The notes below the pieces were generated by a model. That model was not told the DNA's origin, made no database searches, and worked only from the letters and a program-made list of their open reading frames with translations. Of a stretch of 50,482 bases of DNA, positions 4,477 through 50,441 are shown one piece after another; the first letter of the stretch is position 1, and each line of letters opens with the position of its first letter. Both the position numbers and the translations under genes were made by a program. The stretch lies in NCBI GenBank assembly GCA_024276795.1, contig JAJRWK010000272.1, forward strand, positions 1-50,482. Reading direction: 5' to 3'. This DNA is from an archaeon. GTDB taxonomy: Archaea; Asgardarchaeota; Heimdallarchaeia; Heimdallarchaeales; JAJRWK01.

Positions 4477-4992
4477 ATGAACCTTGTTATTTTCGAACTA
4501 ATCAAGAACAATATGCAAACAGCCTTAGAGCAAGAAGAGCACCCAAGCAAAGCTAAATTTCATCACATTTTCCTATTTGCTATGCATCATCTTATTACGG
4601 TGAACAAAATGGCTTTGGACTTTAGATGCAAACTGTATTTGCTTTTTTCCAAAGAAGACTCAGCCATGTATGAACTATGTCAAATGTTGTAAACACTTCC
4701 GAATTTTGCTGTAATTTTCACTTTGGAATCCAGACTTAACTTTTATGACTCTAGCAAAGTCGAAAAGGACTTTATTCGTAATGACATGGTTGCTCAGCAT
4801 GTACCTTACATTTTTCTGACATCGAAGCTACTATTCACTATGGAAGATCATGATGCTAATGAGCAAGAAAAACAAGGGATCGAGCAATATTTTCGCGACA
4901 CGATTCTGAGTTACAACTACTCCCCCAAGATTTGGCACGGATTTTACCTTGAAAATCAAATATTTTCAAGAACAGAACGTTCTAGAGCATAA
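4477..4992 (+). pseudogene. possible pseudogene: 171-codon frame interrupted by one in-frame TAA (4690..4692)
   Basis: Track ORFs 4477..4692 and 4723..4992 are in the same frame. The only stop between them is the TAA at 4690..4692 (...CQML*TLPNFAVIFTLESRLNFY...). No recognisable family. Confidence 0.25.
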
Positions 4993-5339
4993 TTAGAGCT
5001 ACTCTTCCAAAAACAAGCATGTATGGGTAGCCCTCTGGGGTCATAATCTTAGGACTACTTCTCATTATTTAGTGGTTCAGTGGTACCGTTCGCATGTACT
5101 GAAAAGCGGCAACTTTTCTCATGAAATTCTTGTCAAAAGGCTTGCAAGACCGAATTCACTTTTGAAGAATTCGTGGGAATGTAAATAAGTAGCAGTTTTT
5201 GTTCTCACAAGGATTTTTTCGGTGTTGCCAGGAACCCATAGTTGTGAGTGCATATAAACCGATTATTTTTGCAAAAATGATTATAGAAATTAGTATCACC
5301 TACGTATTCTGTTTCTGGCTCGTAAAACTAGGATATTAC

Positions 5340-5801
5340 ATGAATACAAAAAGCGCCAGATGTTATGATGGTCACATGGGAACAGATATCGCGGGAACAC
5401 CGATTGGAAATTTTGACGATGAGGAAAGAGAGGAGCAAATAGAAATATTTCGAGCCTTGAGAAACTACGGGGAAGTAATTACTAATGCTACTTTGCCAGA
5501 TAGGAGAGGCAAAAATCTCGTATTAGATGCTTTGCTAAAGAACAAGGAGGAAATGTATGGCATAATCTACCTTAACTGGAAAAGAAAGGTTGGTACCAAT
5601 AAAATACACCAAGCTGAACGATTAGTGAGTGAGACAAATCTTAACGGTGCGATTATCGTGGGGCCGTCCTTTTCGACAACAGCTCATGAATTAGCCAAAC
5701 AAGTAAATCTTAGAGGATCCGGAAGAATCATGTTGTTGGAAAAAGATGTTGTCAAGAGACTACAAGGATATGATAGCGGGAATCCTCTGCAAGCATCATA
5801 G
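5340..5801 (+). CDS. restriction-endonuclease-like (Mrr catalytic domain-like) protein
   Basis: The pattern LDALL...GIIYLNWKRKVGTNKIHQ...LNGAIIVGPSFSTTAHELAKQV...RIMLLEKDVV matches the Mrr_cat layout as I remember it (D ... [QE]xK-like block, then 'gi.vtts.Ft..A...a', then 'i.Lid'). Start placed at the ATG at 5340, because the upstream part of the track ORF begins with TTG and looks non-coding. Confidence 0.5.
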   Translation: MNTKSARCYDGHMGTDIAGTPIGNFDDEEREEQIEIFRALRNYGEVITNATLPDRRGKNLVLDALLKNKEEMYGIIYLNWKRKVGTNKIHQAERLVSETNLNGAIIVGPSFSTTAHELAKQVNLRGSGRIMLLEKDVVKRLQGYDSGNPLQAS

Positions 5802-5834
5802 AGAAATGAAATAGTTGTCGGGATCATCTTTTTC

Positions 5835-6428
5835 TTACACGGGGAGGAAAACAGCTTCTGCAAATATGATGAGAGTCCACTCTAATCGCACGGCCTTCAG
5901 ATTTTTCTCACCTATTGATAGATAGCTGTAACCAATTACCTCAGAGAGAAACAAAACAATAGCAATAATGCCCACCGTGGAACACAACTGTTCCGAAACA
6001 ATGAAGGCAATCAGAGGTTTTCTCTGAATGATTGAAACATAGTCCCCTACAGGGAAAAGGAAAAATGCAACTGTAAGTAATAGTTTTGCGGTTACAGGAT
6101 ATCTCCTCGCACGAACGAGGGCTGAAAAAGAGGATCCGATAGGATTAATAGGCAACGAATCTCCGAATAAATACGTAAAGAGAAAGTAATTTACGAAAGT
6201 TTTGATGACCCATATGGTCATTCCAAACATGGTAACTGCGAAAAAAACACTCAGCAGTAATGATTTTTCAAAACGTTCTTGCAAAATTGGATCGTAAGAT
6301 AAGGAAAGATTGGTTTTGGTTGCAACAACGAGCAGAAACAAAGTAGTTACGGCAACTTCGATAAGATTCCATTTCAAAAGCAAGACCCAATCGAAGACCT
6401 CACTTTCGTTGTTCAGTTCTCTTATCAT
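5835..6428 (-). CDS. polytopic membrane protein, unknown function
   Basis: 197-codon ORF with about 6 hydrophobic segments. Confidence 0.55.
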   Translation of the reverse strand: MIRELNNESEVFDWVLLLKWNLIEVAVTTLFLLVVATKTNLSLSYDPILQERFEKSLLLSVFFAVTMFGMTIWVIKTFVNYFLFTYLFGDSLPINPIGSSFSALVRARRYPVTAKLLLTVAFFLFPVGDYVSIIQRKPLIAFIVSEQLCSTVGIIAIVLFLSEVIGYSYLSIGEKNLKAVRLEWTLIIFAEAVFLPV

Positions 6429-6508
6429 TTATTTGACGTTAGGAATCAGGCTTTTAATTGTTGTTTTAAAACTGATCCTGTAGCAAGATAGGAGTGGTTT
6501 AGGCAAAA

Positions 6509-7507
6509 CTATCGTCGATATTTGCTAAGCTGAGTTTCAAGAGCTTTCGTTATGTTCTCAAGATTGATTCCGAGACTACTGATTTCGCTCAAATTTTCGT
6601 TCAAGGACTTTGTTTGCGATGCGACTTCCATTGAAATGTCTTGGATGACTTCATAACTTGTCGATAGCCGTTTAATGATTTTTGAGAGTTCGTCAACTAC
6701 AGCCGTTATGTCGATTTCAAACTCATTGGTGGTCTGAGTAATAAGAGAAGCCTGTCGTTTGGATTCTTCAGCAAGTCTGCGGATTTGTTCGGCAACCACG
6801 CTGAAGCCTTTTCCATACCTTCCTGCTCTCGTAGCTTCAATACTTGCGTTGATTGCAAGAAGGTTTGTCTGCTTAGCAATACTATGCAAGGATTCACTGA
6901 GTTCGGTAATTCTCGAAAGAACCCTATCGATGCCAAAGCCAAGTGATGCTAGAGCTGAAATTGCAACGTTAATGGCATCTTTTTCTGATTGAACTTCTGC
7001 GAGAAGTCGCGCGGCATCAATTCTTGCAGCTGTGGAAATTCGTTCTGAAGAATGAGAAAGATCAACGAGAGAATTTACATTTTCGATGAGACCATGATGG
7101 ATAATTTCTAATCTGCCTTGAAAGTCTTCAATAGAGTTCCTCAGATCGATTAGTGCATCAACAACAGTACTGATCTCTATGGATCTTATTTTTTCCAGAG
7201 CAAGAGGATCTAGATTCCCGTTGCTCAGGTTTCTCAAAGCCATCGAAGTTGCATATAGGGAATCGCTAGGATTTTGAATCAGATCAAGCAAGATCAAGGC
7301 TTGACCGATCAAAATCAACCCAAGCAAACCGAGTCGCAAGACATCACTAATGAATGGAAAGTAAACATAAAAGATCAAACCGACAGCAGTTAAGGAGACT
7401 ACGCTTAGCATTTTCAAGAGCTTGTTGGTCGCAATCCCGACATGTGATTCAAGAATTTGCCCCGTGGTGGCCATAAAGATCACTATTCTTTTGACTGTAA
7501 GCTTCAT
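6509..7507 (-). CDS. methyl-accepting chemotaxis protein (short form: two N-terminal TM helices, no obvious sensor domain)
   Basis: Carries the highly conserved MCP signalling hairpin motif AKQTNLLAINASIEATRAGRYGKGFSVVAEQIRRLAEES. The N-terminus has two hydrophobic helices. Confidence 0.85.
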   Translation of the reverse strand: MKLTVKRIVIFMATTGQILESHVGIATNKLLKMLSVVSLTAVGLIFYVYFPFISDVLRLGLLGLILIGQALILLDLIQNPSDSLYATSMALRNLSNGNLDPLALEKIRSIEISTVVDALIDLRNSIEDFQGRLEIIHHGLIENVNSLVDLSHSSERISTAARIDAARLLAEVQSEKDAINVAISALASLGFGIDRVLSRITELSESLHSIAKQTNLLAINASIEATRAGRYGKGFSVVAEQIRRLAEESKRQASLITQTTNEFEIDITAVVDELSKIIKRLSTSYEVIQDISMEVASQTKSLNENLSEISSLGINLENITKALETQLSKYRR

Positions 7508-28134: not shown

Positions 28135-30021
28135 CTACGTCTCGAATTTGGAAAGCACGCGGATAAGTTCTTGAGAAAGGTTAGAAAGCTCATTTGCAGT
28201 ACTACTTACCTCTTCCATCATTGCTGTCTGCTCTTCAGATGCGGCATTGGCTTCTTCCGAGCCAGCAGCGTTTTCCTCTGCCACTTCTCTTACCCTCTCC
28301 ACGGCTCTGGCAACATCCTCGACCGTCTGCTTTAGTGTTCGGTTAATGGTGTCTACAAGGTCCGCAATCTCTTCAGCACGGCTCTTTGTGTCGTCTGCGA
28401 GTTCTCTGATGCTTTGAGCAACAATGCCGAAACCTCTTCCGTAAATTCCTGCCTTCGCTGCTTCAATGGAGGCATTCAGTCCGAGAATGTTTGATCTCTT
28501 GGATACCTTTCGTACAAATTCTGCCGCATCAGTGATCTTTTCCGAAGCCTCACTGACGTATTCGATTAATTCGCGCAACTGTTCAGATACGCGGTTAACC
28601 ATTTCTGTCTGTTCACTGGCGCCATAGCTGATTTCAGAAACCGTTGCTGACACTTCCTGCACACTGGATGATGCTTGTTCTGCAGCCGCAGCCAACTCTT
28701 CAGAAATTCCTGCAACACGTTCTGCTACTTCTTGGCCTTGGTGAATAACTTCTTTCATCGAAAGAACCATCATGTCGAATGCTTGTTGCACTTCTGAAAG
28801 CTCGTCGGTTCCTGTTGGATTAAAGAGATCGACTCTGAGATTTCCTTGGGAAAGCATTGTTGCTTTCTTTCTCAGATCACCTAACGGTGGAATTATCTTA
28901 GCGCTACTGATGGCAATAAGGAACGCGACTATGATGATTGTTACTATGTTTACTGTCAGAATTGTTTGTTGTGTCTGTTGTTTCTGGAAGGAAACTTCTT
29001 GTCGCTTTCTTTGGACGTCTTCTTGGAGCAGTATTGCAAGATTGTCGAGTTTTTCGACTAGATTTCCAAGACTTCCCGGTATTCCAGCACTGGCACTACT
29101 CGTGATTCTACCAATATCACGAGTGAGAGTGAGAATGTCTAGAAGATTTTGCGAAATAATTTCTGAGTCTTCGATAATATCTTCGATGAGATTGAGAAAT
29201 ATTGGGTCTAGGAACGCTTTTTCCGTTGAATTTAGAATTTCAGTACTAGCATTAGTATAGGTTGCATTGATGCCTTGAAGGGTTAAAGCAAGATTATCCC
29301 GAATTGTGCCCACTTGTTCTTCGGTGAAACTTTCTACAGATAAAGCAAGAAGATTGGACAGTTCAGCTTTCGCCTTGACTTGAACTTCACTCCACAGCTG
29401 AGCAATTAGAATTGTGGAGTTGAGGATTCTGATTGCTTCTGCTTGATCCGTACCAATGATTTGATTTGCGTATTCAGTTCTATTGTCAAGCCATGATTGA
29501 ACATACGTGTTATTGCGGTCTATTTCTTCTTGAATATGAGCGGAGGCGTCATAACTGATTTTGTTGAGCCCTATGATTTGTTGGATTCTGGATTCCACAG
29601 CATACAAGTAATCAAAAATAATGTCGATCTCTTCGGTGAATGTTTGTCTGATATCATCGACTGCAATGGTGAAGTTTTCAGAGAATTCGTCTTGAATCGT
29701 GCTTCGTTTTTCTGCAGTATCTATGAATTCTGAATATGCAAGGAGAATATCATCCAGAATCGACGACCTAACAAACGAGGACTGTGTTCCAATGCTCTTC
29801 GTAGTGAATGTTGCGTAGCTTTCATAGAGTATTCTCAGGGTCGTTGTCCGAAATTCTAGAAGCTTTTCGAAGATTTCGGTGTTGATATTGGCCGCTTCTT
29901 GTCTTGGTGCAATTTCTGTTCGATCGAAATAGATAGGAGCAGTGGATGTAATCGCGAAAGATGTAATTATCACGATGAATGAAATCAAGAGTATAAATCG
30001 GATTTGGCTATAGAATGCCAT
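28135..30021 (-). CDS. methyl-accepting chemotaxis protein (TM, large extracytoplasmic helical sensor, TM, HAMP, signalling domain)
   Basis: MCP hairpin motif KRSNILGLNASIEAAKAGIYGRGFGIVAQSIRELADDTK. HAMP-like segment PPLGDLRKKATMLSQGNLRVDL...DELSEVQQAFDMMV. The ATG at 30021 is preceded by GAGGAG 8 nt upstream; the track start at 30075 is less likely. Confidence 0.85.
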   Translation of the reverse strand: MAFYSQIRFILLISFIVIITSFAITSTAPIYFDRTEIAPRQEAANINTEIFEKLLEFRTTTLRILYESYATFTTKSIGTQSSFVRSSILDDILLAYSEFIDTAEKRSTIQDEFSENFTIAVDDIRQTFTEEIDIIFDYLYAVESRIQQIIGLNKISYDASAHIQEEIDRNNTYVQSWLDNRTEYANQIIGTDQAEAIRILNSTILIAQLWSEVQVKAKAELSNLLALSVESFTEEQVGTIRDNLALTLQGINATYTNASTEILNSTEKAFLDPIFLNLIEDIIEDSEIISQNLLDILTLTRDIGRITSSASAGIPGSLGNLVEKLDNLAILLQEDVQRKRQEVSFQKQQTQQTILTVNIVTIIIVAFLIAISSAKIIPPLGDLRKKATMLSQGNLRVDLFNPTGTDELSEVQQAFDMMVLSMKEVIHQGQEVAERVAGISEELAAAAEQASSSVQEVSATVSEISYGASEQTEMVNRVSEQLRELIEYVSEASEKITDAAEFVRKVSKRSNILGLNASIEAAKAGIYGRGFGIVAQSIRELADDTKSRAEEIADLVDTINRTLKQTVEDVARAVERVREVAEENAAGSEEANAASEEQTAMMEEVSSTANELSNLSQELIRVLSKFET

Positions 30022-30252
30022 CTTTATTCTCCTCGCATTTATTGTTACTATTCCCACGAAACACGTTATGATCACTGTTTTTTTAGCTCGGATTCTGATC
30101 GATGATCGTGGATAGTTCTACTGAAAAGTAATTACAGTCCAGTTTTTTTAACTCTTGCGTGAATTTGAAGGAAGGGTAATAATAGATCGGGAGAAAAGAA
30201 GGAACTAGTTGATGCTTCTAACAACGATGATTCTTTTGGTGGAGTCTTCGCT

Positions 30253-33502: not shown

Positions 33503-33645
33503 AAGATGAGAAATAGCGAGGATTTGAAAGGATTTTTGATCGGAGAACAGAATGTAGACCGGAAAAAAGGAGATTTCAGATGCTCAACGCCCAACAACAT
33601 TGACAGATACTACTTTTTGACACTCGCTGACGAAATTGGGTTTGT

Positions 33646-34626
33646 CTATTGCGTATCTGAAAAGATCATGGTCGCTAATTTTCGAAGTTTTTCGACTCCC
33701 TTTACTTCTTCAGGCAAGTAAGGAAGCTCAGTTCTAATATAATCTGAAAATACTTGGCGAGCGTATTCAAGAACTTCTTGCTGGTTGTGGTATCTCGCAG
33801 AGCAGAATGCACAACTTTCATTTTTTGGCATGATCTGATTAATCACAACATTTCTTACCAAAATATTCTGATCTGATAGAGCAACTAGCAGTCTCTCACT
33901 CTCATAAACGGACATCAATGTTGGAATAGAAACGACCACGAACTCAGTTTCAACATGGTTCTGCAGATCCTCTCTGATCTGTAAGATATTTTCCTTGAGT
34001 TTTTCCATGATTTCGACGGATCGATCCCTTTCAGCCTCCATGCCAACCATTGATTTGAAGAATGCGAGCGTGTTGCTAAGTTTTACTCTCATTTTAAGAA
34101 GTTTTCCAAGAAAACTGTCTAGAAACTCGGGGAGAGACAACAGCCTTATTGTGTGCCCAGTAGGAGCAGTGTCGAGTATGATACGGTCGTAATCACCTTG
34201 CCTTGCGATTTGCATGACTTGAGAAAGTGCCACTGCTTCATCCATGCCTGGGGGAGTATTCTGGTGAAGGTCTGTTGTAAGGTCATCCAGTCCCAGCATG
34301 CTGAGGGATTGGGAAAGTTCGTCAGAAACGCCTTCTTCCTCCAGCATGTGTTTTACTTCTTCGGTTCCTTTCTCTGGGCTGATTTCGAGCCCGAATAGCT
34401 CGCCTTCGACTCCTTTGATCGGGATGACTTCTCCTCCTGAAATGTCTTGAGAAAATGAGTCGCTTAAAGAATGGGCGGGATCTGTGCTTATGATCAAGAC
34501 CTTGTCTCCTTGTTCAGCGAGGAAAATTGCCGTTGCCGAACTAATACTAGTTTTGCCAACACCGCCCTTTCCGCCGAACAGTATCATTCTCTTGTTGGTG
34601 TCATTAGCGAGATTCGAGAGACTCAT
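33646..34626 (-). CDS. get3: ArsA/Get3 (TRC40)-family ATPase with CxxC motif
   Basis: ILFGGKGGVGKTSISSATAIFLA (deviant Walker A), LIISTDPAHSLSDSF, DTAPTGHTIRLL, and the CAFC (CxxC) motif in ...PKNESCAFCSARYHNQQ, as in Get3-type members. Start set at the ATG at 34626, 23 nt after the upstream stop. The track ORF extends to 34731 and overlaps the upstream gene. Confidence 0.85.
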   Translation of the reverse strand: MSLSNLANDTNKRMILFGGKGGVGKTSISSATAIFLAEQGDKVLIISTDPAHSLSDSFSQDISGGEVIPIKGVEGELFGLEISPEKGTEEVKHMLEEEGVSDELSQSLSMLGLDDLTTDLHQNTPPGMDEAVALSQVMQIARQGDYDRIILDTAPTGHTIRLLSLPEFLDSFLGKLLKMRVKLSNTLAFFKSMVGMEAERDRSVEIMEKLKENILQIREDLQNHVETEFVVVSIPTLMSVYESERLLVALSDQNILVRNVVINQIMPKNESCAFCSARYHNQQEVLEYARQVFSDYIRTELPYLPEEVKGVEKLRKLATMIFSDTQ

Positions 34627-34649
34627 ATCCAGCACCAGTTTTCTTGCCT

Positions 34650-35207
34650 CTATTTCTTGTAACGGATGAAAAGAAGTGGGATGGCAGGCAGAGCAATTAT
34701 CCCTACAGAAATCAAGGAAAGGTAGAGCCAATATCTACCTTCACTGGTTTGCTGTTTTTCAACGAGCGGGGACAAGAAATAGCCTTGAGAGCTGGCCTCG
34801 TACTTCGTGCCATTAATATCGTACCAAGTAATCCGAGTCGGGGGAATGAAGACGTTCTCATCTTCTACTAGCTTAAATTGGAAGTAGTAAACATAAGATG
34901 CGTTGGGTTTTAGTTCTTCAATAAAATCGATGTGTGGCGTATTTTCGAGTCTAAGTACGCCTTTTGGTGTTATCGGTTCTGCGATAGTAACATTATACGC
35001 CGAGCTGTTTCCGTAGTTGGTCACATTTACTAGAGCAATGGTTTGCTCGCCGATTTTTAGTTCCGTTTTTTCAATATACTTGGAGACATCGAGAGCCCCG
35101 AATGCCGGAGTCGGTTTTTCCACTGCTGTAGACGCCGACAAATTAGCAAATAGGATAACCAGAAGAACTACAGTTGATAGTTTTGCACGAGTGGAGTTCA
35201 TAGGCAT
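34650..35207 (-). CDS. TRAP-beta (SSR2)-like type I membrane protein: signal peptide, single Ig/CARDB-like domain, C-terminal TM
   Basis: 183-185 aa. Signal peptide LSTVVLLVILFANLSAS. Ig-like block IALVNVTNYGNSSAYNVTIAE ... LKPNASYVYYFQF ... PPTRITWYD. C-terminal anchor YLSLISVGIIALPAIPLLFIRYKK. Layout and several blocks parallel human SSR2 as I remember it (YNIYNVGSSAALDVELSD ... TSATITY ... LPSIGIPLLLWYSSKRKY). The second ATG at 35201 has better GGTG spacing. Confidence 0.5.
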   Translation of the reverse strand: MPMNSTRAKLSTVVLLVILFANLSASTAVEKPTPAFGALDVSKYIEKTELKIGEQTIALVNVTNYGNSSAYNVTIAEPITPKGVLRLENTPHIDFIEELKPNASYVYYFQFKLVEDENVFIPPTRITWYDINGTKYEASSQGYFLSPLVEKQQTSEGRYWLYLSLISVGIIALPAIPLLFIRYKK

Positions 35208-35360
35208 CGCACCGTTCTACGCTTTTCGCTTAGAACTGTAGTTATAATGCTTTTTGCTGGAGACACTAAAAGAAAAATACATCGATCTTTCGTGATCAGC
35301 TCAAACAATTGCTGGAGATAAGAGAGGGGGGGATGAAAATCAAGCAAATCGAAGTTAATT

Positions 35361-35951
35361 TTAGGCAAATGGAGTGCTGAGTGTGCCAGCTTTGATCAAT
35401 GTAGAGCCACTCTCACCAGGGAGTCTCCATTCGACCCATACTTCCCATGTATAGATAGTGTTACCATCAAGGTTTAGGGAGGTGTGCACAAAGTTGTTGG
35501 TTGCAGATGCACCAGTATAGGCAAAATCAAGGTCATTGTAGGTTCTTGACCCTTGAATTGTACGGGTGCTCTCAGATTGGGACGAGAACGTGCTTGTGGC
35601 AAGGTTTCCCTGCCAATATTGCTGTCCACCAAGATTTCTGCTGGCTGCTCTAAAATACCAGTTGTTTGCAGTGTTCTTAAGATAAATATTCTCAATAATA
35701 ACAGCGTCTGCGCCATCGACCGTGAGAGTGAAGTCTAGCTGGATGATGTTGTTGTGGTTATCGCTATCTCGTTGGATAATACCATTCGTCCATGAAGCCG
35801 TAACAGTAGCGGTTCCGGTCGTATTACTCAAATAGTTATTTACGACGACCCAGATCACGGCTCCAGCAGCCACCGTTAGAGCAATCAGCAATACAGTGGC
35901 AACAACTGGAGAAACTCCTTTCCGATCTAATGATTTCATTAATTTAAACAT
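35361..35951 (-). CDS. archaeal type IV pilin-like protein (class III signal peptide)
   Basis: MFKLMKSLDRKGVSPVVATVLLIALTVAAGAVIWVVV is the canonical archaeal prepilin/archaellin-like N-terminus (K/R-G-[VI]-S-P-V-[IV]-A-T-V-L-L). The ATG at 35951 is preceded by AAGGTGA. Confidence 0.8.
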   Translation of the reverse strand: MFKLMKSLDRKGVSPVVATVLLIALTVAAGAVIWVVVNNYLSNTTGTATVTASWTNGIIQRDSDNHNNIIQLDFTLTVDGADAVIIENIYLKNTANNWYFRAASRNLGGQQYWQGNLATSTFSSQSESTRTIQGSRTYNDLDFAYTGASATNNFVHTSLNLDGNTIYTWEVWVEWRLPGESGSTLIKAGTLSTPFA

Positions 35952-36147
35952 GGTTCCTTCACCTTCTCCTTCCTCTTGAGGAAAAGTCATGTTAAGATTA
36001 ACGGGCCTAAAATATAAGCTTTATAGATATTTATTCCCGCTCTTTCCGAAAAATCCCGAAAACCTTTGTTTTTTGAAGAATGAGCGGGTAACAAGAGGGT
36101 CAATTTTGACGACCAAAAAGTAAGAACTTTTCCAAATTGGCTCTGAA

Positions 36148-37266
36148 TTATGCTTGGAAAGGAATGATATTTTGATCAACAGATCTTAAGCCAAACGGCG
36201 AATTGGCAAATAGAATAACTTGTATCCTTGCCACTTGTCCAACTACGTCGGGTGTCAAAGAAATACCGATCCCCGTTGTGAGTAATCCTTTCACAGGGCG
36301 CAAGATAGTCCATTTCATGATGTGAATTATGTCATCTTGACTGGAAAGAATTCTCACTTCCATATATGGTCTTGCAGGAGCTCCTGAGAAGAGGAAAGAC
36401 ACGGCCACTTGGAAGTACAAACGATTGATGCTTACCGTTTCAACTTGGGACTTGATGCTTGTTTGAACCCCGATTTCAACAGACTTAATCTCTCCAGATG
36501 TTGTGAAACCAAAAAAGCCTACAACCCAAGCGCCTAAAAGCAAGCTTATCAAAAGAATGAGAACAAGAGTAATTGCAACCACTTGGAATCGTCTGTTCTT
36601 TGCTAAGAGCTCTCGCCAGGAAGTGCTGGACTGGGAACTGACTTTGTTCTCGTTTGAAGTGCCTGACGCGTCAGTAAGTTCACCCGATTTCTCAAGCTTC
36701 TCGGGTTTTGATTCTGGCCAGAACATTAGCGCCAAAAATCCCAGTATAGCGGAGATATACACCATAACTGTGTTTTTCGTAGCATCTGAACGAATCAAAC
36801 TGATTTCTCCAAGCCAGGGCAGTCTTGAGACTACGACTCCAATGATTGATTCATACGAAACGAGGCCTCCACCAAGGAGGGTATTATCTGGAACTGAGTT
36901 CTCGATTGGATTGTCTCCTTTGACTCTGAAAAATAATTGAGTCTCACCATTGATTGTTAGCTCAACAATTTCGATGACTCGATGGATGATCAATGGAGCG
37001 TTGGAAAGCTGGTTTCGATAAACGATAACATCTCCAATTTTGATTTCAGAAGCAGGTTTCTCCTTAATAATGAAAATATCTCCCTGGAAATAACCTGGAT
37101 ACATTGAGTTTAAATCTTCGTTAACGATAACCACTAGAGAATAAGGCCCTACAGTGAATGAATAGACGGTAACAAGTAGCAAGACAGCCATGGCGGCGTA
37201 TCCAGCGTTTTTTTTGGTTAACAGATTGTCCTTGACTGAACTGGAACTGGATTCCTCCAAACTCAC
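36148..37266 (-). CDS. signal peptidase I, archaeal/ER Sec11 type (S26B), with ~190-aa C-terminal extension
   Basis: LNSMYPGYFQGDIFII (catalytic Ser box), IGDVIVYR, PLIIHRVIE (His box) and FRVKGDNP (GDN box) align with Sec11/SPC18-21. A further TM (VVAITLVLILLISLLLGAWVVGFFGF) and a beta-rich domain follow. GTG start. Confidence 0.8.
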   Translation of the reverse strand: MSLEESSSSSVKDNLLTKKNAGYAAMAVLLLVTVYSFTVGPYSLVVIVNEDLNSMYPGYFQGDIFIIKEKPASEIKIGDVIVYRNQLSNAPLIIHRVIEIVELTINGETQLFFRVKGDNPIENSVPDNTLLGGGLVSYESIIGVVVSRLPWLGEISLIRSDATKNTVMVYISAILGFLALMFWPESKPEKLEKSGELTDASGTSNENKVSSQSSTSWRELLAKNRRFQVVAITLVLILLISLLLGAWVVGFFGFTTSGEIKSVEIGVQTSIKSQVETVSINRLYFQVAVSFLFSGAPARPYMEVRILSSQDDIIHIMKWTILRPVKGLLTTGIGISLTPDVVGQVARIQVILFANSPFGLRSVDQNIIPFQA

Positions 37267-46491: not shown

Positions 46492-47892
46492 TTAGATGAA
46501 GTCTCCTCTCTCTATTTTTTCTGGCAAATAGTGATTGGTGATAAATTGGGGATCTCTTGCATTGAGAGCTTGTATTTCTGCCTTGATTCCAAGGTCAAGA
46601 AGGACTTGTAGTTGTTCCCTCCATTTGGGTCTCTTAAGAACGAATTCTTCATCTAAGAGTCTCCGAGCTTTCTTGACATCAGACTGGCTCATTTTGATAA
46701 AGGCGCTTTTTGGAATGCCAAATCCTGAATCTTCCATGAGATCTGTAGGTAAGAGTCCAAGCCATTTGATATTAGGCACTGCAAGTGTTCTTGCTTCAAA
46801 ACTAAGTGCTTTGCTTCCCACTGTGTAAACTCTCATGATTTCGAAACCATACACATCTGCATCCATGATTGCTAAGATGGGTAGCTGGAGTTCATCGTTA
46901 ATTTTTCTGAGAAATTCTCTCGTAGCCATATCTGGTTGTCCTTTTGCCGTTACGAGGATGGAAGGCACATAATCGTAAAAGTGGTCTTCTGCAAGACGGT
47001 TGAAAACTGCATCTTTCTCAACGACAAGAACGAATTCAGCGTCGCTTTCGAGGTTATCGATGTCATCGATGTTTGGAGCAATAGATTTGCCAGAACCAAT
47101 AGCCCTGCAGTCGATGTAGTCTCCTCTTTCTGTGAAGGAGAGTCGACCAATCACGACACCCTTGCTTGTGGCCCAGATATTCATTGACGAGCGTGTTACT
47201 TGTAACATTGCTCCTAAGTCTTCAATCAAAGCATCGCTAGTGGATTGGGCTTCGAATTCATTGACGGCCATGTAGAAGAGGTCACGTTTTGTTGTGTGTA
47301 TTTCACGGTCTAAAACTTCGTATAGAATTCTCATCAAAGTTGACATTTGAGCTACGCTCTTGACAGATGAAAGGCTCCTGAACTGGCGCTCAATCATTTG
47401 TCTTCCAAGAAGAACCATTTGTAATTCATCGTCATAGCTAATATTGTCTTTTGATCTGCTGGGGATTCTGAAGGAGGCTGAATGAGGATTGTAAAGTGCA
47501 TCAAAGATGAATTCTTGGGCTTTCTCTACCAAGATTCTTTTTGTTTCAGGAGCGGGCAATTCATCTACTCCAATCACTCCGTAAGGGAAGTCGGTATCGC
47601 TGAGCTCCTTGAATTTTAAGATTAATTCTTTGATGGCTTGAGTTGAAACATATCTTTTTATGTCAATTTTACTTTTCCCTGCTTCTAATGGATAGTCAAT
47701 AAGTTTCTTATTGGGATCTAGTCGGTACCATTTCTTTCTAGTCCGCAGAAAAAGAACAATTTTTTTGGATTTGGGAATCTCGGCTAGTTCTTTTAGCTGT
47801 CGCTCAATAGCTGAGACACTCATTTCAGGATCTATTTCCGCAACATGATCTGTTCCGGGAAGAACAGTTGAGTTTCTAACTTGTAACTTCAT
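46492..47892 (-). CDS. top6A: DNA topoisomerase VI subunit A / Spo11-family protein with ~100-aa N-terminal extension
   Basis: 5Y-CAP motif TKRDLFYM (compare Spo11 RDIFYS), Toprim VLVVEKDAVFNRL and IMDADVYGFEI, and C-terminal KAEIQAL. The ATG at 47892 is preceded by AAGAGGTG (7-nt spacer) in the 17 nt after the upstream stop. Confidence 0.85.
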   Translation of the reverse strand: MKLQVRNSTVLPGTDHVAEIDPEMSVSAIERQLKELAEIPKSKKIVLFLRTRKKWYRLDPNKKLIDYPLEAGKSKIDIKRYVSTQAIKELILKFKELSDTDFPYGVIGVDELPAPETKRILVEKAQEFIFDALYNPHSASFRIPSRSKDNISYDDELQMVLLGRQMIERQFRSLSSVKSVAQMSTLMRILYEVLDREIHTTKRDLFYMAVNEFEAQSTSDALIEDLGAMLQVTRSSMNIWATSKGVVIGRLSFTERGDYIDCRAIGSGKSIAPNIDDIDNLESDAEFVLVVEKDAVFNRLAEDHFYDYVPSILVTAKGQPDMATREFLRKINDELQLPILAIMDADVYGFEIMRVYTVGSKALSFEARTLAVPNIKWLGLLPTDLMEDSGFGIPKSAFIKMSQSDVKKARRLLDEEFVLKRPKWREQLQVLLDLGIKAEIQALNARDPQFITNHYLPEKIERGDFI

Positions 47893-47909: not shown

Positions 47910-50441
47910 TCATTTCTTTTTTGTTTTTCTCCGAGATCCCGAGGGGCTTTTCTTTGATGATGCACTTTTCTTGGACTTAGAAGCAGATCCCTTTTTCGTA
48001 GCTGATTTCGACATTGCTCCGCTAGTTCTTGATTTCTGGAATGACTGTTTTGTGCTCGAAGTCATCTCAGTAGTCTTTGATTTCCTGTCTGAGGAGCTTG
48101 GTTGCTTTTGTTTTGAAGATTTTGATTTCATTGGTTTTGTCTTCTTGATCTCTTTTGTTTCTAGTTTTTTGGAAGTCTTACGGGATTTTGTCTTTGCCTT
48201 GGGCTTTGAGCTCTGGGGCACTTTTTCGGCTTTTGGTTTGGGAGAGAGGGACGGAATCTTAAACTTGATCTTGCGTATTGCAGCGTAACTAAGTCCGGTT
48301 TCTTCATGGATTTTCTTATCTGGTACGAATAAGAATTCGCCCCATGTTTTGATCTGGAGCGATTTTCCCATAACTGAGCCTAGCTTGGAGTCAATTAGTT
48401 CTAGAGGGGTTTGAAGTCTGCGTGTAGCTTTCGAGAGCTTTTCTTCTAGTTCCTTTGTCAACCCCTTCTGTCTGATAGCATTAGCAGAAACAAGTTGCCT
48501 AACATCAATTATGCCAAGCCCCTTAAGCGTTTCTTGATCTTGAGCTCGGATCTCAGGGAAGTCCTTGAGCTGAGGAATTTTGATTTTGCTTGCGATTCTG
48601 AGCTCTTTAGAGCTTAGATCAGCAATTGCTTTTTCCAGAAGTTCATCGCTTATTTTTGCTTCTTTCAAAACCCATGATTTTGGTAAAAATAGTAGTTGGT
48701 CGATTTGGTTGACGTTCTTCTTGATTAGACGCAGAATGGCAGTAGGAATAGTTTCTGTTAGAGTAATGAAATCATAGAGGGGGCGATGGAGCGTTTCCTT
48801 GGTGCTGTAATAATTCTTTTCTGTTACTCCTTTTATCTTCTGCAAATGGACGGGACTAAGGGCAAGGAATTGCTGAATAGTGAGACATCCGCTTTCACGA
48901 AGTGTCTGGATCTGTGGACCAGGAAGAATTGAAAGCAGATTGATAGGATATCCATTATTCTGGAATTGAGTCTTGATGTCTAACGAGAGTAGTTTGTCGA
49001 CGTAAGCATTCAAGTCAAATTTCTTGAGCACCTTGTTGTTTTGATACGCTGTTACAATCTGGGGCAGTAACAAATGGATTGAGCGTGAAATTCCAATGGA
49101 ATAAAGGTGAAGTACGTCTGAGGCTGATTCTAAAACAAAAGTAATCGGAATTGCGCCTACAATTTCAGTAAGCGGTTTGTGTTCATACTCAAAGAAGTAG
49201 TCGTTGACGAGAGCATCCATTATTTGTTGTGTTTCATTGTCTAGAGCGTTGAAAGACACGGGCTTATGTTTTAAGATTTCTTGGGTAAGAGACACGTTTT
49301 CCCCATCCAGCAAAGCGGCTCGTATGTTTTGAGACAAAATGGGGTTGAGAGATGCTATCGTTTCCTCAAATTCTTTTATGTTGTCTTGGGTGAATTCGAT
49401 GAATTTCCAAGTTGGCACCTCAAATGCAGCTTTTGCCTCGGCAAGTAACTCAGAGACACCTAACGCTATGAAAATTTCTGGGAGTTTGCTCGGTAGAAGA
49501 ATAACGTCTTCAAGAAATGTTACACCAACGCTTAGTAACTGATTTGTTAAGTCTCCAATGAAATGAATGTCCTTGATTGCGAAGAGCCCATCTACAGCAT
49601 TGTTCGTTACTATTTGATCTTTCAAGGCTTCAGCTTTAGTGACAGAGATTCCAAGCTTCTCAGCTAGCTCTTGGGATGATAGGTACAGAATTTGGACTCT
49701 AGATGATAGTCCAAGTCTGATTAGTTTTTGAGCAATCTTCGAATCCAATGTTTGAAGCCTGATCGGATTAGCTAAAAGATAGGGAACTATAGCTTTCTTC
49801 AGAGCTGGAGTCAGTTGACTGAGTGATTTGGAAGTAGAATGCAACAGCTGGTTGAGGGATTGGATTCCCAGGGTTTCAGCTTCCTTCTTCGGCAGATCTG
49901 GAATAATCTCAAGTAATTGATAATCTTTTTCAATTGATGGTGAATCTGCTAGTACTTTGAAGATCTGTTTTCTCTTTGCTGGTGGGAATTCGAACCAGCT
50001 CTTAATGATCAGATCTTTTAACGGTAATCCAGAGTCTTGGGCATCTAGTGTTTTGGCCAGTGCGGGGATGGAAGAAACTTTTGTGGTTAGAAATTCGTCA
50101 ATTTTTCTCGCAATTTCTGCAGGTATATCAAGGGAACCTTGATTTGAGAGTAGATCTTCTATCGTATAGATCCCCCATTTTTCAAAGAAACGCTTCTCTT
50201 GGGCTTTCAGGTTGGGAACAATTTCCAAGGACAATCCTGCCTCACGCAATTTCTCAGCGTCTTCCGCTTTTTCAAATCTGGACATGATTGATCCAAGGGA
50301 AGATTCACCGCGTAAGACGAATTCTCTCGCAATGTCTTCTAAGTTTCTTATCCTACTTTCCCACAATTCTACTAGCTGTTGCTTCATGCTTGGATAAGTT
50401 TCTGCAAGGTAAAGAGTTGAAGCCTTTACAGCTCTCCTCAT
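47910..50441 (-). CDS. helix-hairpin-helix (DUF4332-like) repeat protein with 114-aa Lys/Ser-rich C-terminal tail; N-terminus may lie outside the window
   Basis: At least 7-8 copies of an 'x-L-x-x-x-G-[ILV]-x-[ST]-[ILV]-x-[DQ]-[LF]-[LV]' HhH-like motif, for example FFEKWGIYTIEDLL, AETLGIQSLNQLL, LIRLGLSSRVQIL, AEKLGISVTKAEAL, LRESGCLTIQQFL and LKGLGIIDVRQLV. The tail is KPKAEKVPQSSKPKAKTKSRKTSKK...SRRKTKKK. The reading frame stays open from 50441 to the right edge at 50482, so the true start may be further upstream. Confidence 0.75.
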   Translation of the reverse strand: MRRAVKASTLYLAETYPSMKQQLVELWESRIRNLEDIAREFVLRGESSLGSIMSRFEKAEDAEKLREAGLSLEIVPNLKAQEKRFFEKWGIYTIEDLLSNQGSLDIPAEIARKIDEFLTTKVSSIPALAKTLDAQDSGLPLKDLIIKSWFEFPPAKRKQIFKVLADSPSIEKDYQLLEIIPDLPKKEAETLGIQSLNQLLHSTSKSLSQLTPALKKAIVPYLLANPIRLQTLDSKIAQKLIRLGLSSRVQILYLSSQELAEKLGISVTKAEALKDQIVTNNAVDGLFAIKDIHFIGDLTNQLLSVGVTFLEDVILLPSKLPEIFIALGVSELLAEAKAAFEVPTWKFIEFTQDNIKEFEETIASLNPILSQNIRAALLDGENVSLTQEILKHKPVSFNALDNETQQIMDALVNDYFFEYEHKPLTEIVGAIPITFVLESASDVLHLYSIGISRSIHLLLPQIVTAYQNNKVLKKFDLNAYVDKLLSLDIKTQFQNNGYPINLLSILPGPQIQTLRESGCLTIQQFLALSPVHLQKIKGVTEKNYYSTKETLHRPLYDFITLTETIPTAILRLIKKNVNQIDQLLFLPKSWVLKEAKISDELLEKAIADLSSKELRIASKIKIPQLKDFPEIRAQDQETLKGLGIIDVRQLVSANAIRQKGLTKELEEKLSKATRRLQTPLELIDSKLGSVMGKSLQIKTWGEFLFVPDKKIHEETGLSYAAIRKIKFKIPSLSPKPKAEKVPQSSKPKAKTKSRKTSKKLETKEIKKTKPMKSKSSKQKQPSSSDRKSKTTEMTSSTKQSFQKSRTSGAMSKSATKKGSASKSKKSASSKKSPSGSRRKTKKK

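Follow-up and report, generated by a model that had tools for sequence, protein, structure and literature searches.

A TRAP-beta homologue and a Get3-type ATPase are encoded side by side in Heimdall and Hod lineages of Asgard archaea

Does the close spacing of a gene for a translocon accessory subunit and a gene for a tail-anchor targeting ATPase in an archaeal genome reflect a shared task, or only a gene order handed down from an ancestor? The question is raised by contig JAJRWK010000272.1 (assembly GCA_024276795.1) of a heimdallarchaeial archaeon; the stretch of 50,482 nucleotides (nt), positions 1 to 50,482, is referred to here as the window. On its minus strand, a gene for a 185-amino-acid (aa) homologue of the beta subunit of translocon-associated protein (TRAP-beta; SSR2 in human) is followed at a short distance by get3, the gene for a Get3/TRC40-type ATPase. 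We show that this pair is kept across deeply diverged Heimdall and Hod lineages amid reshuffled surroundings, and propose that the two genes probably form a co-regulated module for membrane-protein biogenesis. The features on which the argument rests are the following.

34650..35207, minus strand: gene for the TRAP-beta (SSR2) homologue, 185 aa, ATG start and TAG stop (Pfam, family alignment, AlphaFold2 (AF2) model, Foldseek, hhalign)
34627..34649, minus strand: 23-nt spacer from the TRAP-beta TAG to the get3 ATG, read directly as TAG aggcaagaaaactGGTGctggat ATG
33646..34626, minus strand: get3, gene for a 326-aa single-domain Get3/TRC40-type ATPase (ArsA_ATPase, TIGR00345, alignment)
34549..34575, minus strand: P-loop GGKGGVGKT of Get3, residues 18-26 (invariant alignment columns; read directly)
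33802..33813, minus strand: CxxC motif CAFC of Get3, residues 272-275 (aligned to CEFC of Methanothermobacter thermautotrophicus Get3)

The original prediction had described an open reading frame (ORF) of about 185 aa whose stop lies 23 nt from the start of a Get3-type ATPase gene with a CxxC motif, CAFC, and both the coordinates and the spacing were verified, as was the motif, which aligns to the CEFC of structure 3ZQ6. It should be noted that the ORF list placed the get3 start at a TTG at 34731; the start adopted here is the ATG at 34626 (MSLSNLAND...), as indicated by the alignment of homologues.

As to what the 185-aa protein is, it is 81-82% identical to homologues in two relatives and 21-30% identical to about 50 family representatives and, judged by its conservation in relatives, the ORF is a real gene. 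With the single sequence, a word-indexed homologue search returned just the 2 relatives, and with a 51-sequence profile it returned 6 proteins. An exhaustive HMMER search with a 3-sequence profile returned 69 proteins, about 50 of which are 175-260 aa long and align end to end (best E 2.5e-13). The layout of this family of proteins of about 190 aa is a signal peptide, one beta-rich immunoglobulin (Ig)-like domain, a C-terminal transmembrane segment (TM) and a basic tail. The Pfam family TRAP_beta (PF05753) is matched by 49 of the 51 aligned members (E<=0.01, best 1.9e-16), other Pfam matches in these 51 being to DUF11 (26 members), BatD (24) and CARDB (5). Homologues linked to get3 in other genomes score 64.7 (locus L044), 53.3 (L055) and 41.7 bits (L043) against PF05753, whose gathering score is 22.4 bits; the window protein scores 12.5 bits. 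Used as a single query against the sequences of the Protein Data Bank (PDB), the window protein gave no match. The family profile, searched against all PDB sequences, matched three TRAP-beta sequences at 1.4-1.6e-7, with the next match at 2.6e-3 and no TRAP-alpha among the matches. A comparison by hhalign with a human SSR2 sequence, of which residues 37-113 were verified through the PDB profile search, gave a probability of 95.7% and an E value of 8e-9 over 95 columns. The three SSR2-like sequence blocks noticed in the original prediction are the same blocks that HMMER and hhalign align; an NxGxxxAxxxxI block and a T(I/V)TY block fall on SSR2 residues 37-113.

The predicted structure agrees with this assignment. 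Built on the 51-sequence alignment, the AF2 model reached a mean predicted local distance difference test score (pLDDT) of 91; a model built on the 3-sequence alignment reached 48.5 and was discarded. The retained model has an N-terminal helix at residues 6-21, corresponding to the signal peptide, a beta-sandwich at 39-147, a C-terminal helix at 156-184 and a 4-residue RYKK tail, and the limits predicted for the protein are about 1-27 for the signal peptide, 39-147 for the Ig-like domain and about 156-181 for the TM. The five best Foldseek matches in the PDB (E 1.1e-8 to 6.5e-8) come from five structures of the ribosome with Sec61 and TRAP and are in each case the TRAP-beta chain, aligned over about 160 columns, TM helix included, with a target-normalised TM-score of 0.61-0.63 and about 11-18% identity. 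From 2.5e-6 on follow chains that we take to be TRAP-alpha, and lower ranks are held by archaeal Fsx1 (3e-5) and a CARDB domain (4e-4). The fold comparison with SSR2 that had been proposed as a check thus places TRAP-beta at ranks 1 to 5, and the architecture and length originally read from the ORF agree with the model, the family alignment and the analysis of the tails: a signal peptide, a single Ig-like domain, a C-terminal TM and a short tail within some 180-190 aa. Judged by these comparisons, the family of the 185-aa protein is clearly TRAP-beta.

Compared with eukaryotic TRAP-beta (PDB 8B6L chain F, 8B5L chain v, 8BTK chain TB), the archaeal protein is of nearly the same length (185 versus 183 aa in human) and shares the cleavable signal peptide, the one Ig-like domain, the single C-terminal TM and the short basic tail. 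It differs in its predicted placement in the cell membrane rather than the endoplasmic reticulum (ER), and in that its gene is linked to get3, an arrangement without parallel in eukaryotes. In the window clade and the clades nearest to it, 4-8 residues separate the end of the TM from the C-terminus. In homologues of the type found in Heimdallarchaeaceae (L014-L030 type), the cytosolic tail is 35-44 residues long, 17-22 of them Lys/Arg, as against 4 residues in the window clade; such a Lys/Arg-rich tail is a candidate for binding rRNA or an acidic partner. The window protein contains seven N-glycosylation sequons, five of them in the Ig-like domain. The best-kept motif of the family, N[IV]TNxGNx[ST]AYN[LV]TI (window residues 61-74), is itself made of such sequons; 40 of the 51 family members have the one at N72, and a protein of the family has a median of 6 sequons. 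A motif built of sequons agrees with the neighbourhood of the Njordarchaeota-type loci, in which the TRAP-beta gene lies beside the gene for the oligosaccharyltransferase STT3 (see below).

The second protein of the pair is, by its sequence matches, an ordinary archaeal CxxC Get3, with tail-anchor targeting activity assigned by homology. It matches ArsA_ATPase (Pfam) at 2.8e-85 and TIGR00345, the NCBIfam model of the GET3/ArsA/TRC40 subfamily, at 284.7 bits (cut-off 135). A reading as the ATPase of an arsenite pump was considered and rejected (TIGR04291, 142.6 bits against a cut-off of 650), and no ars genes lie near get3 in the window. The best match among PDB sequences is the tandem-domain ARSA1 of Chlamydomonas (5e-123), followed by two methanogen Get3 proteins, from Methanothermobacter (3ZQ6, 3.7e-72) and Methanocaldococcus (3UG6, 3.5e-63); human ASNA1 (6SO5) is matched at 7e-52 and Escherichia coli ArsA at 1.8e-38. 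The P-loop, a deviant Walker A motif, the switch II sequence DTAPTGHT and both cysteines of the CxxC motif are invariant in all ten TRAP-beta-linked Get3 sequences compared, and the position of the CxxC is that of the dimer zinc site of solved Get3 structures. The single ArsA-fold domain, the P-loop, DTAPTGHT and CxxC are alike in the archaeal and eukaryotic Get3 proteins with which we compared it (3ZQ6, 3UG6, 6SO5 and yeast Get3). By its scores, the window Get3 is no nearer to eukaryotic than to methanogen Get3, and it is unusual only in its genomic partner.

Is the partnership peculiar to this genome? When related genomes were sampled with TRAP-beta as the anchor, 26 loci (the window, L001-L003, L007, L008, L014-L030 and L036-L038) had get3 as the next gene, on the strand of TRAP-beta. 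The loci nearest to the window belong to metagenome-assembled genomes of Candidatus Heimdallarchaeota; L014-L030 represent Candidatus Heimdallarchaeum aukensis, Candidatus Heimdallarchaeum endolithica and 15 further Heimdallarchaeota species representatives, L036 is labelled Hodarchaeota and L037 Hodarchaeales. The two genes overlap by 7 nt in L003 and by 1 nt in L007, and are separated by 5 nt in L008, 15 nt in L037 and 2 nt in L038. One further locus, L123, has them in divergent orientation, separated by one small ORF. Among the pair-bearing loci, the TRAP-beta proteins are 21-30% and the Get3 proteins 40-49% identical to those of the window, and in a clustering of the ORFs of 22 such loci, TRAP-beta and Get3 were the sole families present in all. 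The loci fall into at least five unrelated sets of flanking genes, with the 17 Heimdallarchaeaceae-type loci forming one set.

Sampling from the other side gave a matching picture. Eighty ArsA/Get3 loci were taken from among the matches listed, being a sample and not the 80 closest, and a gene with a TRAP-beta domain adjoins get3 in all three loci labelled Heimdall or Hod (L044, L055 and L043). Such a neighbour was present in none of the 77 others among the matches listed, which include two loci from Thorarchaeota, one labelled Promethearchaeota, and loci from methanogens, haloarchaea and bacteria. The genes lie on the same strand with a 15-nt gap in L044 and are divergent, about 95 nt apart, in L055 (Candidatus Hodarchaeum mangrovi). 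In L043, from Heimdallarchaeota, a 507-aa multi-Ig protein of the TRAP-beta type is convergent with get3; its gene lies at 4504-6027 on the minus strand, and its last Ig-like domain and TM match PF05753 to profile position 168. The adjacency that was to be looked for in related genomes is therefore conserved over a considerable depth, and the outcome that had been named as fatal to the original proposal, generic domain hits without a TRAP_beta signal together with an unconserved adjacency, was found in neither of its parts. The pairing is not a general Asgard trait; it is confined to the Heimdall and Hod lineages.

Elsewhere the TRAP-beta gene keeps other company. In the Njordarchaeota-type loci (L012, L013, L039, L040 and L041), it starts 18 nt after the STT3 gene. 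In an Asgard-like group (L005, L006, L009 and L033), it adjoins the gene for ribosomal protein eS26, with the SRP54 gene about 1-1.2 kb off; one of these loci is labelled Korarchaeota and one Promethearchaeati. Locus L041 has both STT3 and eS26 near TRAP-beta. The get3, STT3 and eS26-SRP54 contexts provide independent genomic support for a role of archaeal TRAP-beta in protein export or insertion.

The original prediction went further and supposed that the two genes form an operon. For the window and for several other lineages, this part probably stands. In the window, L002, L003, L007, L008, L037, L038 and L044, the spacing between the genes ranges from -7 to +28 nt, which leaves no space for an intergenic promoter, and co-transcription is the simplest reading of these tightly spaced loci. 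No TATA-like element and no T-run was seen when the 23-nt spacer of the window was read, and it contains a Shine-Dalgarno-like GGTG that ends 6 nt before the get3 ATG and is also present in L002 (82% identical). Rfam gave no match anywhere in the window. Two elements outside the genes may delimit the transcript.

35242..35248, minus strand: candidate promoter, a TATA-like ATTATAA that follows A-rich sequence and lies 38 nt upstream of the TRAP-beta ATG (suggested by its sequence and position)
33562..33567, minus strand: candidate archaeal oligo-T terminator, a T6 run about 80 nt past the get3 stop and before an MFS gene (likewise only suggested)

The full set of operon features, that is, a common strand, a short spacer without promoter or terminator and an internal ribosome-binding site, was found for the window lineage only, and the operon does not extend to all pair-bearing loci. 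In the Heimdallarchaeaceae-type loci (L014-L030), a spacer of 45-114 nt has T-runs just past the TRAP-beta stop. At 22-30 nt ahead of the get3 ATG it contains a conserved TTTATATA/TTTAAATA box, in the place at which a TATA box is expected in archaea with leaderless or short-leader mRNAs. In view of this position, get3 is probably transcribed separately there, and the arrangement suggests that transcription ends and starts anew between the two genes. The spacer of L024 is longer, at 587 nt. In three loci the two genes are divergent or convergent. Thus, the feature that is conserved throughout the clade is the neighbourhood, and not always a shared transcript.

The reading that we favour as probable is that a TRAP-beta orthologue is paired with Get3 in a co-regulated module for membrane-protein biogenesis, the two genes of which have been retained together while their surroundings were reshuffled. 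The heimdallarchaeial TRAP-beta orthologue would be a type I membrane protein made with a signal peptide, its Ig-like domain, probably N-glycosylated, facing the cell exterior, which is topologically equivalent to the ER lumen, and would most likely serve as an accessory subunit beside the SecY/Sec61 channel. Get3 proteins capture tail-anchored proteins in the cytosol and deliver them to the membrane, and the product of the downstream gene is expected to do so as a homodimer with a zinc-binding CxxC site. The two genes of the window would most likely be expressed as one bicistronic unit from the TATA-like box upstream of TRAP-beta, with get3 translated from its own GGTG ribosome-binding site within the spacer. 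Such a module might balance the supply of a translocon accessory subunit against that of a tail-anchored protein insertion factor; tail-anchored clients in eukaryotes include the translocon subunits Sec61-beta and Sec61-gamma. A gene for signal peptidase I two genes upstream in the window, and STT3 and SRP54 beside TRAP-beta elsewhere, reinforce the theme of membrane-protein biogenesis.

How much of this is new has to be judged against what is known. Asgard homologues of TRAP-beta were reported by Eme et al. 2023 (PMC10307638, supplement), according to whom the PF05753 proteins of Asgard archaea are usually far longer than their eukaryotic counterparts. TRAP-alpha and TRAP-beta of Heimdallarchaeota were found by structure and by reciprocal HHpred (9.4e-14 for TRAP-beta) by Lewis and Hegde 2024 (PMC11186639), and TRAP subunits of Prometheoarchaeum MK-D1 have been studied experimentally by Carilo et al. 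2024 (PMC11417166). Get3 is mentioned in the main text of none of these three papers and was not found in the supplement of Eme et al., and the words operon and gene cluster are absent from the main text of PMC11417166. Our results concern the same protein family and, as in those papers, point to an origin of TRAP in archaea. A divergent subclade of three sequences without Pfam annotation includes the window protein, and the family described here is eukaryote-sized, in contrast to the much longer proteins of Eme et al., of which the 507-aa protein of L043 is probably an example. CxxC Get3 proteins are likewise usual in archaea and already published. The novelty is therefore narrower than originally supposed: both proteins were known, and the identifications alone add little beyond one divergent subclade missed by Pfam and the observation that eukaryote-sized TRAP-beta is widespread in Heimdall and Hod lineages. 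The part that stands is the pairing, of which we found no description in the literature searched. It links, in the Asgard clade nearest to eukaryotes, a translocon accessory subunit with the tail-anchor targeting ATPase, and a conserved neighbour of this kind bears on how archaeal Get3 meets the membrane and on the role of TRAP before there was an ER.

Several observations weigh against the module, and they are best considered together with the explanations that they would favour. The identity of the 185-aa protein is the first matter, since Pfam, given the single sequence, places DUF11 (E=3.6e-4) ahead of TRAP_beta (E=0.099), both under the cut-offs. PF05753 also matches generic DUF11/CARDB repeat proteins, NCBI gives one family member the name 'BatD family protein', and DUF11 proteins of Methanoperedens match the family profile. 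All this would be expected if the protein were a generic archaeal surface protein of the DUF11/CARDB/BatD type that resembles TRAP-beta only through a shared Ig fold, and the Pfam comparison that had been asked for did indeed give a divided answer, with DUF11 ahead for the single sequence and TRAP_beta found in nearly all members of the family. We nevertheless consider a generic surface protein very unlikely. Because of the cross-matches, the assignment to TRAP-beta was built on family membership, architecture and fold ranking and not on the domain hit. PF05753 reaches far more of the 51 members than DUF11, BatD or CARDB, TRAP-beta is the sole strong match of the profile in the PDB and holds the top five folds, and these lead TRAP-alpha by about two and CARDB by about four orders of magnitude with the TM helix aligned. 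DUF11, CARDB and BatD domains belong to the same fold superfamily and give weak cross-matches, but are usually found repeated within long adhesin-like or Bat-operon proteins, whereas here a single domain stands in a TRAP-beta layout, with a length and architecture that fit the 183-aa human protein and not multi-repeat adhesins; moreover, homologues adjoin STT3 and SRP54. Outside the Asgard archaea the boundary is softer, as shown by 382-aa proteins of Methanoperedens (L032, L034 and L035; in L034 at 5611-6759), which match the family hidden Markov model at E of about 1e-25 and in which Pfam puts DUF11 and BatD above TRAP_beta. A further point against the module is that no candidate for TRAP-alpha or TRAP-gamma was present among the window ORFs scanned.

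The remaining objections concern the linkage itself. The 17 Heimdallarchaeaceae-type loci share broad synteny and are therefore not independent of one another, get3 seemingly has its own promoter in them, the pair is divergent in L055 and L123 and convergent in L043, so that an operon is not what is preserved everywhere, and the pairing is absent from the Njord-type loci, the eS26/SRP54-type loci and the two Get3 loci of Thorarchaeota. With the linkage limited to one Asgard clade and nothing in the literature searched that ties TRAP directly to the GET pathway, the adjacency might be an inherited gene order that arose once in a Heimdall/Hod ancestor and has simply not been broken, TRAP-beta and Get3 acting independently as they do in eukaryotes. 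We regard this as rather unlikely. All other genes within about 6 kb have been replaced among the five or more contexts, and the pair has persisted down to the low identities given above; the genes have remained neighbours after inversions; and, in a genome of some 3000 genes, the probability that two given genes adjoin by chance is of the order of 1e-3. The neighbours of TRAP-beta in other Asgard lineages, STT3 and SRP54, are export or insertion genes too. At the opposite end stands a direct physical coupling, in which TRAP-beta would form part of a docking or insertion site for Get3, standing in for Get1/Get2, or in which its C-terminal TM would be a Get3 client. To our knowledge, a Get1/Get2 receptor has not been established in archaea, and the likeness to Get1/Get2 (WRB/CAML) is one of pathway position only, in that the gene beside get3 encodes a membrane protein whose cytosolic segment is basic, with no similarity in sequence or fold; the resemblance is hypothetical. 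The conserved pairing and the tight or overlapping spacing in several lineages would fit such a coupling, as would the Lys/Arg-rich tails of the Heimdallarchaeaceae-type proteins, to which an acidic partner or rRNA might bind. A TM that ends 4-8 residues from the C-terminus, as in the window and nearest clades, satisfies the positional definition of a tail anchor, and so close to the C-terminus it would emerge after translation ends, which makes it a candidate Get3 client. On the other hand, the 4-residue tail of the window protein is too short for docking, and basic tails occur equally in get3-linked and unlinked family members and so lend the coupling no specific support. The N-terminal signal peptide predicts Sec-dependent and not Get3-dependent targeting. 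There are also no fusions of TRAP-beta with Get3 among the longer family matches, in which the partners are Laminin_G_3, PEGA and extra DUF11/CARDB domains. A physical tie of the GET pathway to the Sec-TRAP translocon in the archaeal lineage closest to eukaryotes is thus improbable in our estimate. If true, it would supply the missing archaeal receptor of Get3 and would mean that the insertion pathways of the eukaryotic ER diverged from one integrated machine. Between gene order without function and direct contact of the proteins, a module of two co-regulated genes is the explanation that we retain.

Two further genes upstream of the pair extend the neighbourhood described above.

35361..35990, minus strand: pilin-like gene, 209 aa, with the N-terminal signal of archaeal type IV pilins and archaellins, directly upstream of TRAP-beta
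36148..37266, minus strand: gene for an archaeal signal peptidase I of the Sec11 type (TIGR02228, 2.1e-20), two genes upstream of TRAP-beta

A pilin-like gene also lies directly upstream of TRAP-beta in L001 (6467-7093), L002, L004 (238-651) and L008 (3747-4154), and the order signal peptidase I, pilin-like gene, TRAP-beta and get3 recurs in L001, L002 and L008. A pilin-like protein with a class III signal precedes TRAP-beta in the window clade and two further clades, its N-terminal 40-50 residues alone being conserved from clade to clade. The signal peptidase matches TIGR02228 over residues 24-175. About 190 further aa at its C-terminus include two predicted TM segments and a beta-rich domain; for this extension no match was obtained in Pfam or among PDB sequences, a likeness to SPC3 being among the things sought.

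The window has some other features of note. Between 13101 and 25322 on the minus strand, about 10 kb from the TRAP-beta gene, lies a cluster resembling a Bat/MoxR-type surface-protein operon, with genes for a DUF58/VWA protein, a MoxR AAA_3 ATPase, a DUF4350 protein, two DUF4129 proteins (one of 1359 aa) and a 1049-aa protein with a transglutaminase core. The gene for topoisomerase VI subunit A (46492-47892, minus strand) lies 18 nt downstream of an 843-aa ORF (47910-50441), which has no Pfam match at E<=0.001 and stands where the gene for subunit B would be expected. A gene for a methyl-accepting chemotaxis protein with HAMP and MCPsignal domains (28135-30075, minus strand) lies a few kb from the TRAP-beta/get3 pair, and a chemotaxis protein gene is likewise found a few kb from the pair in the distant locus L008 (6872-8902).

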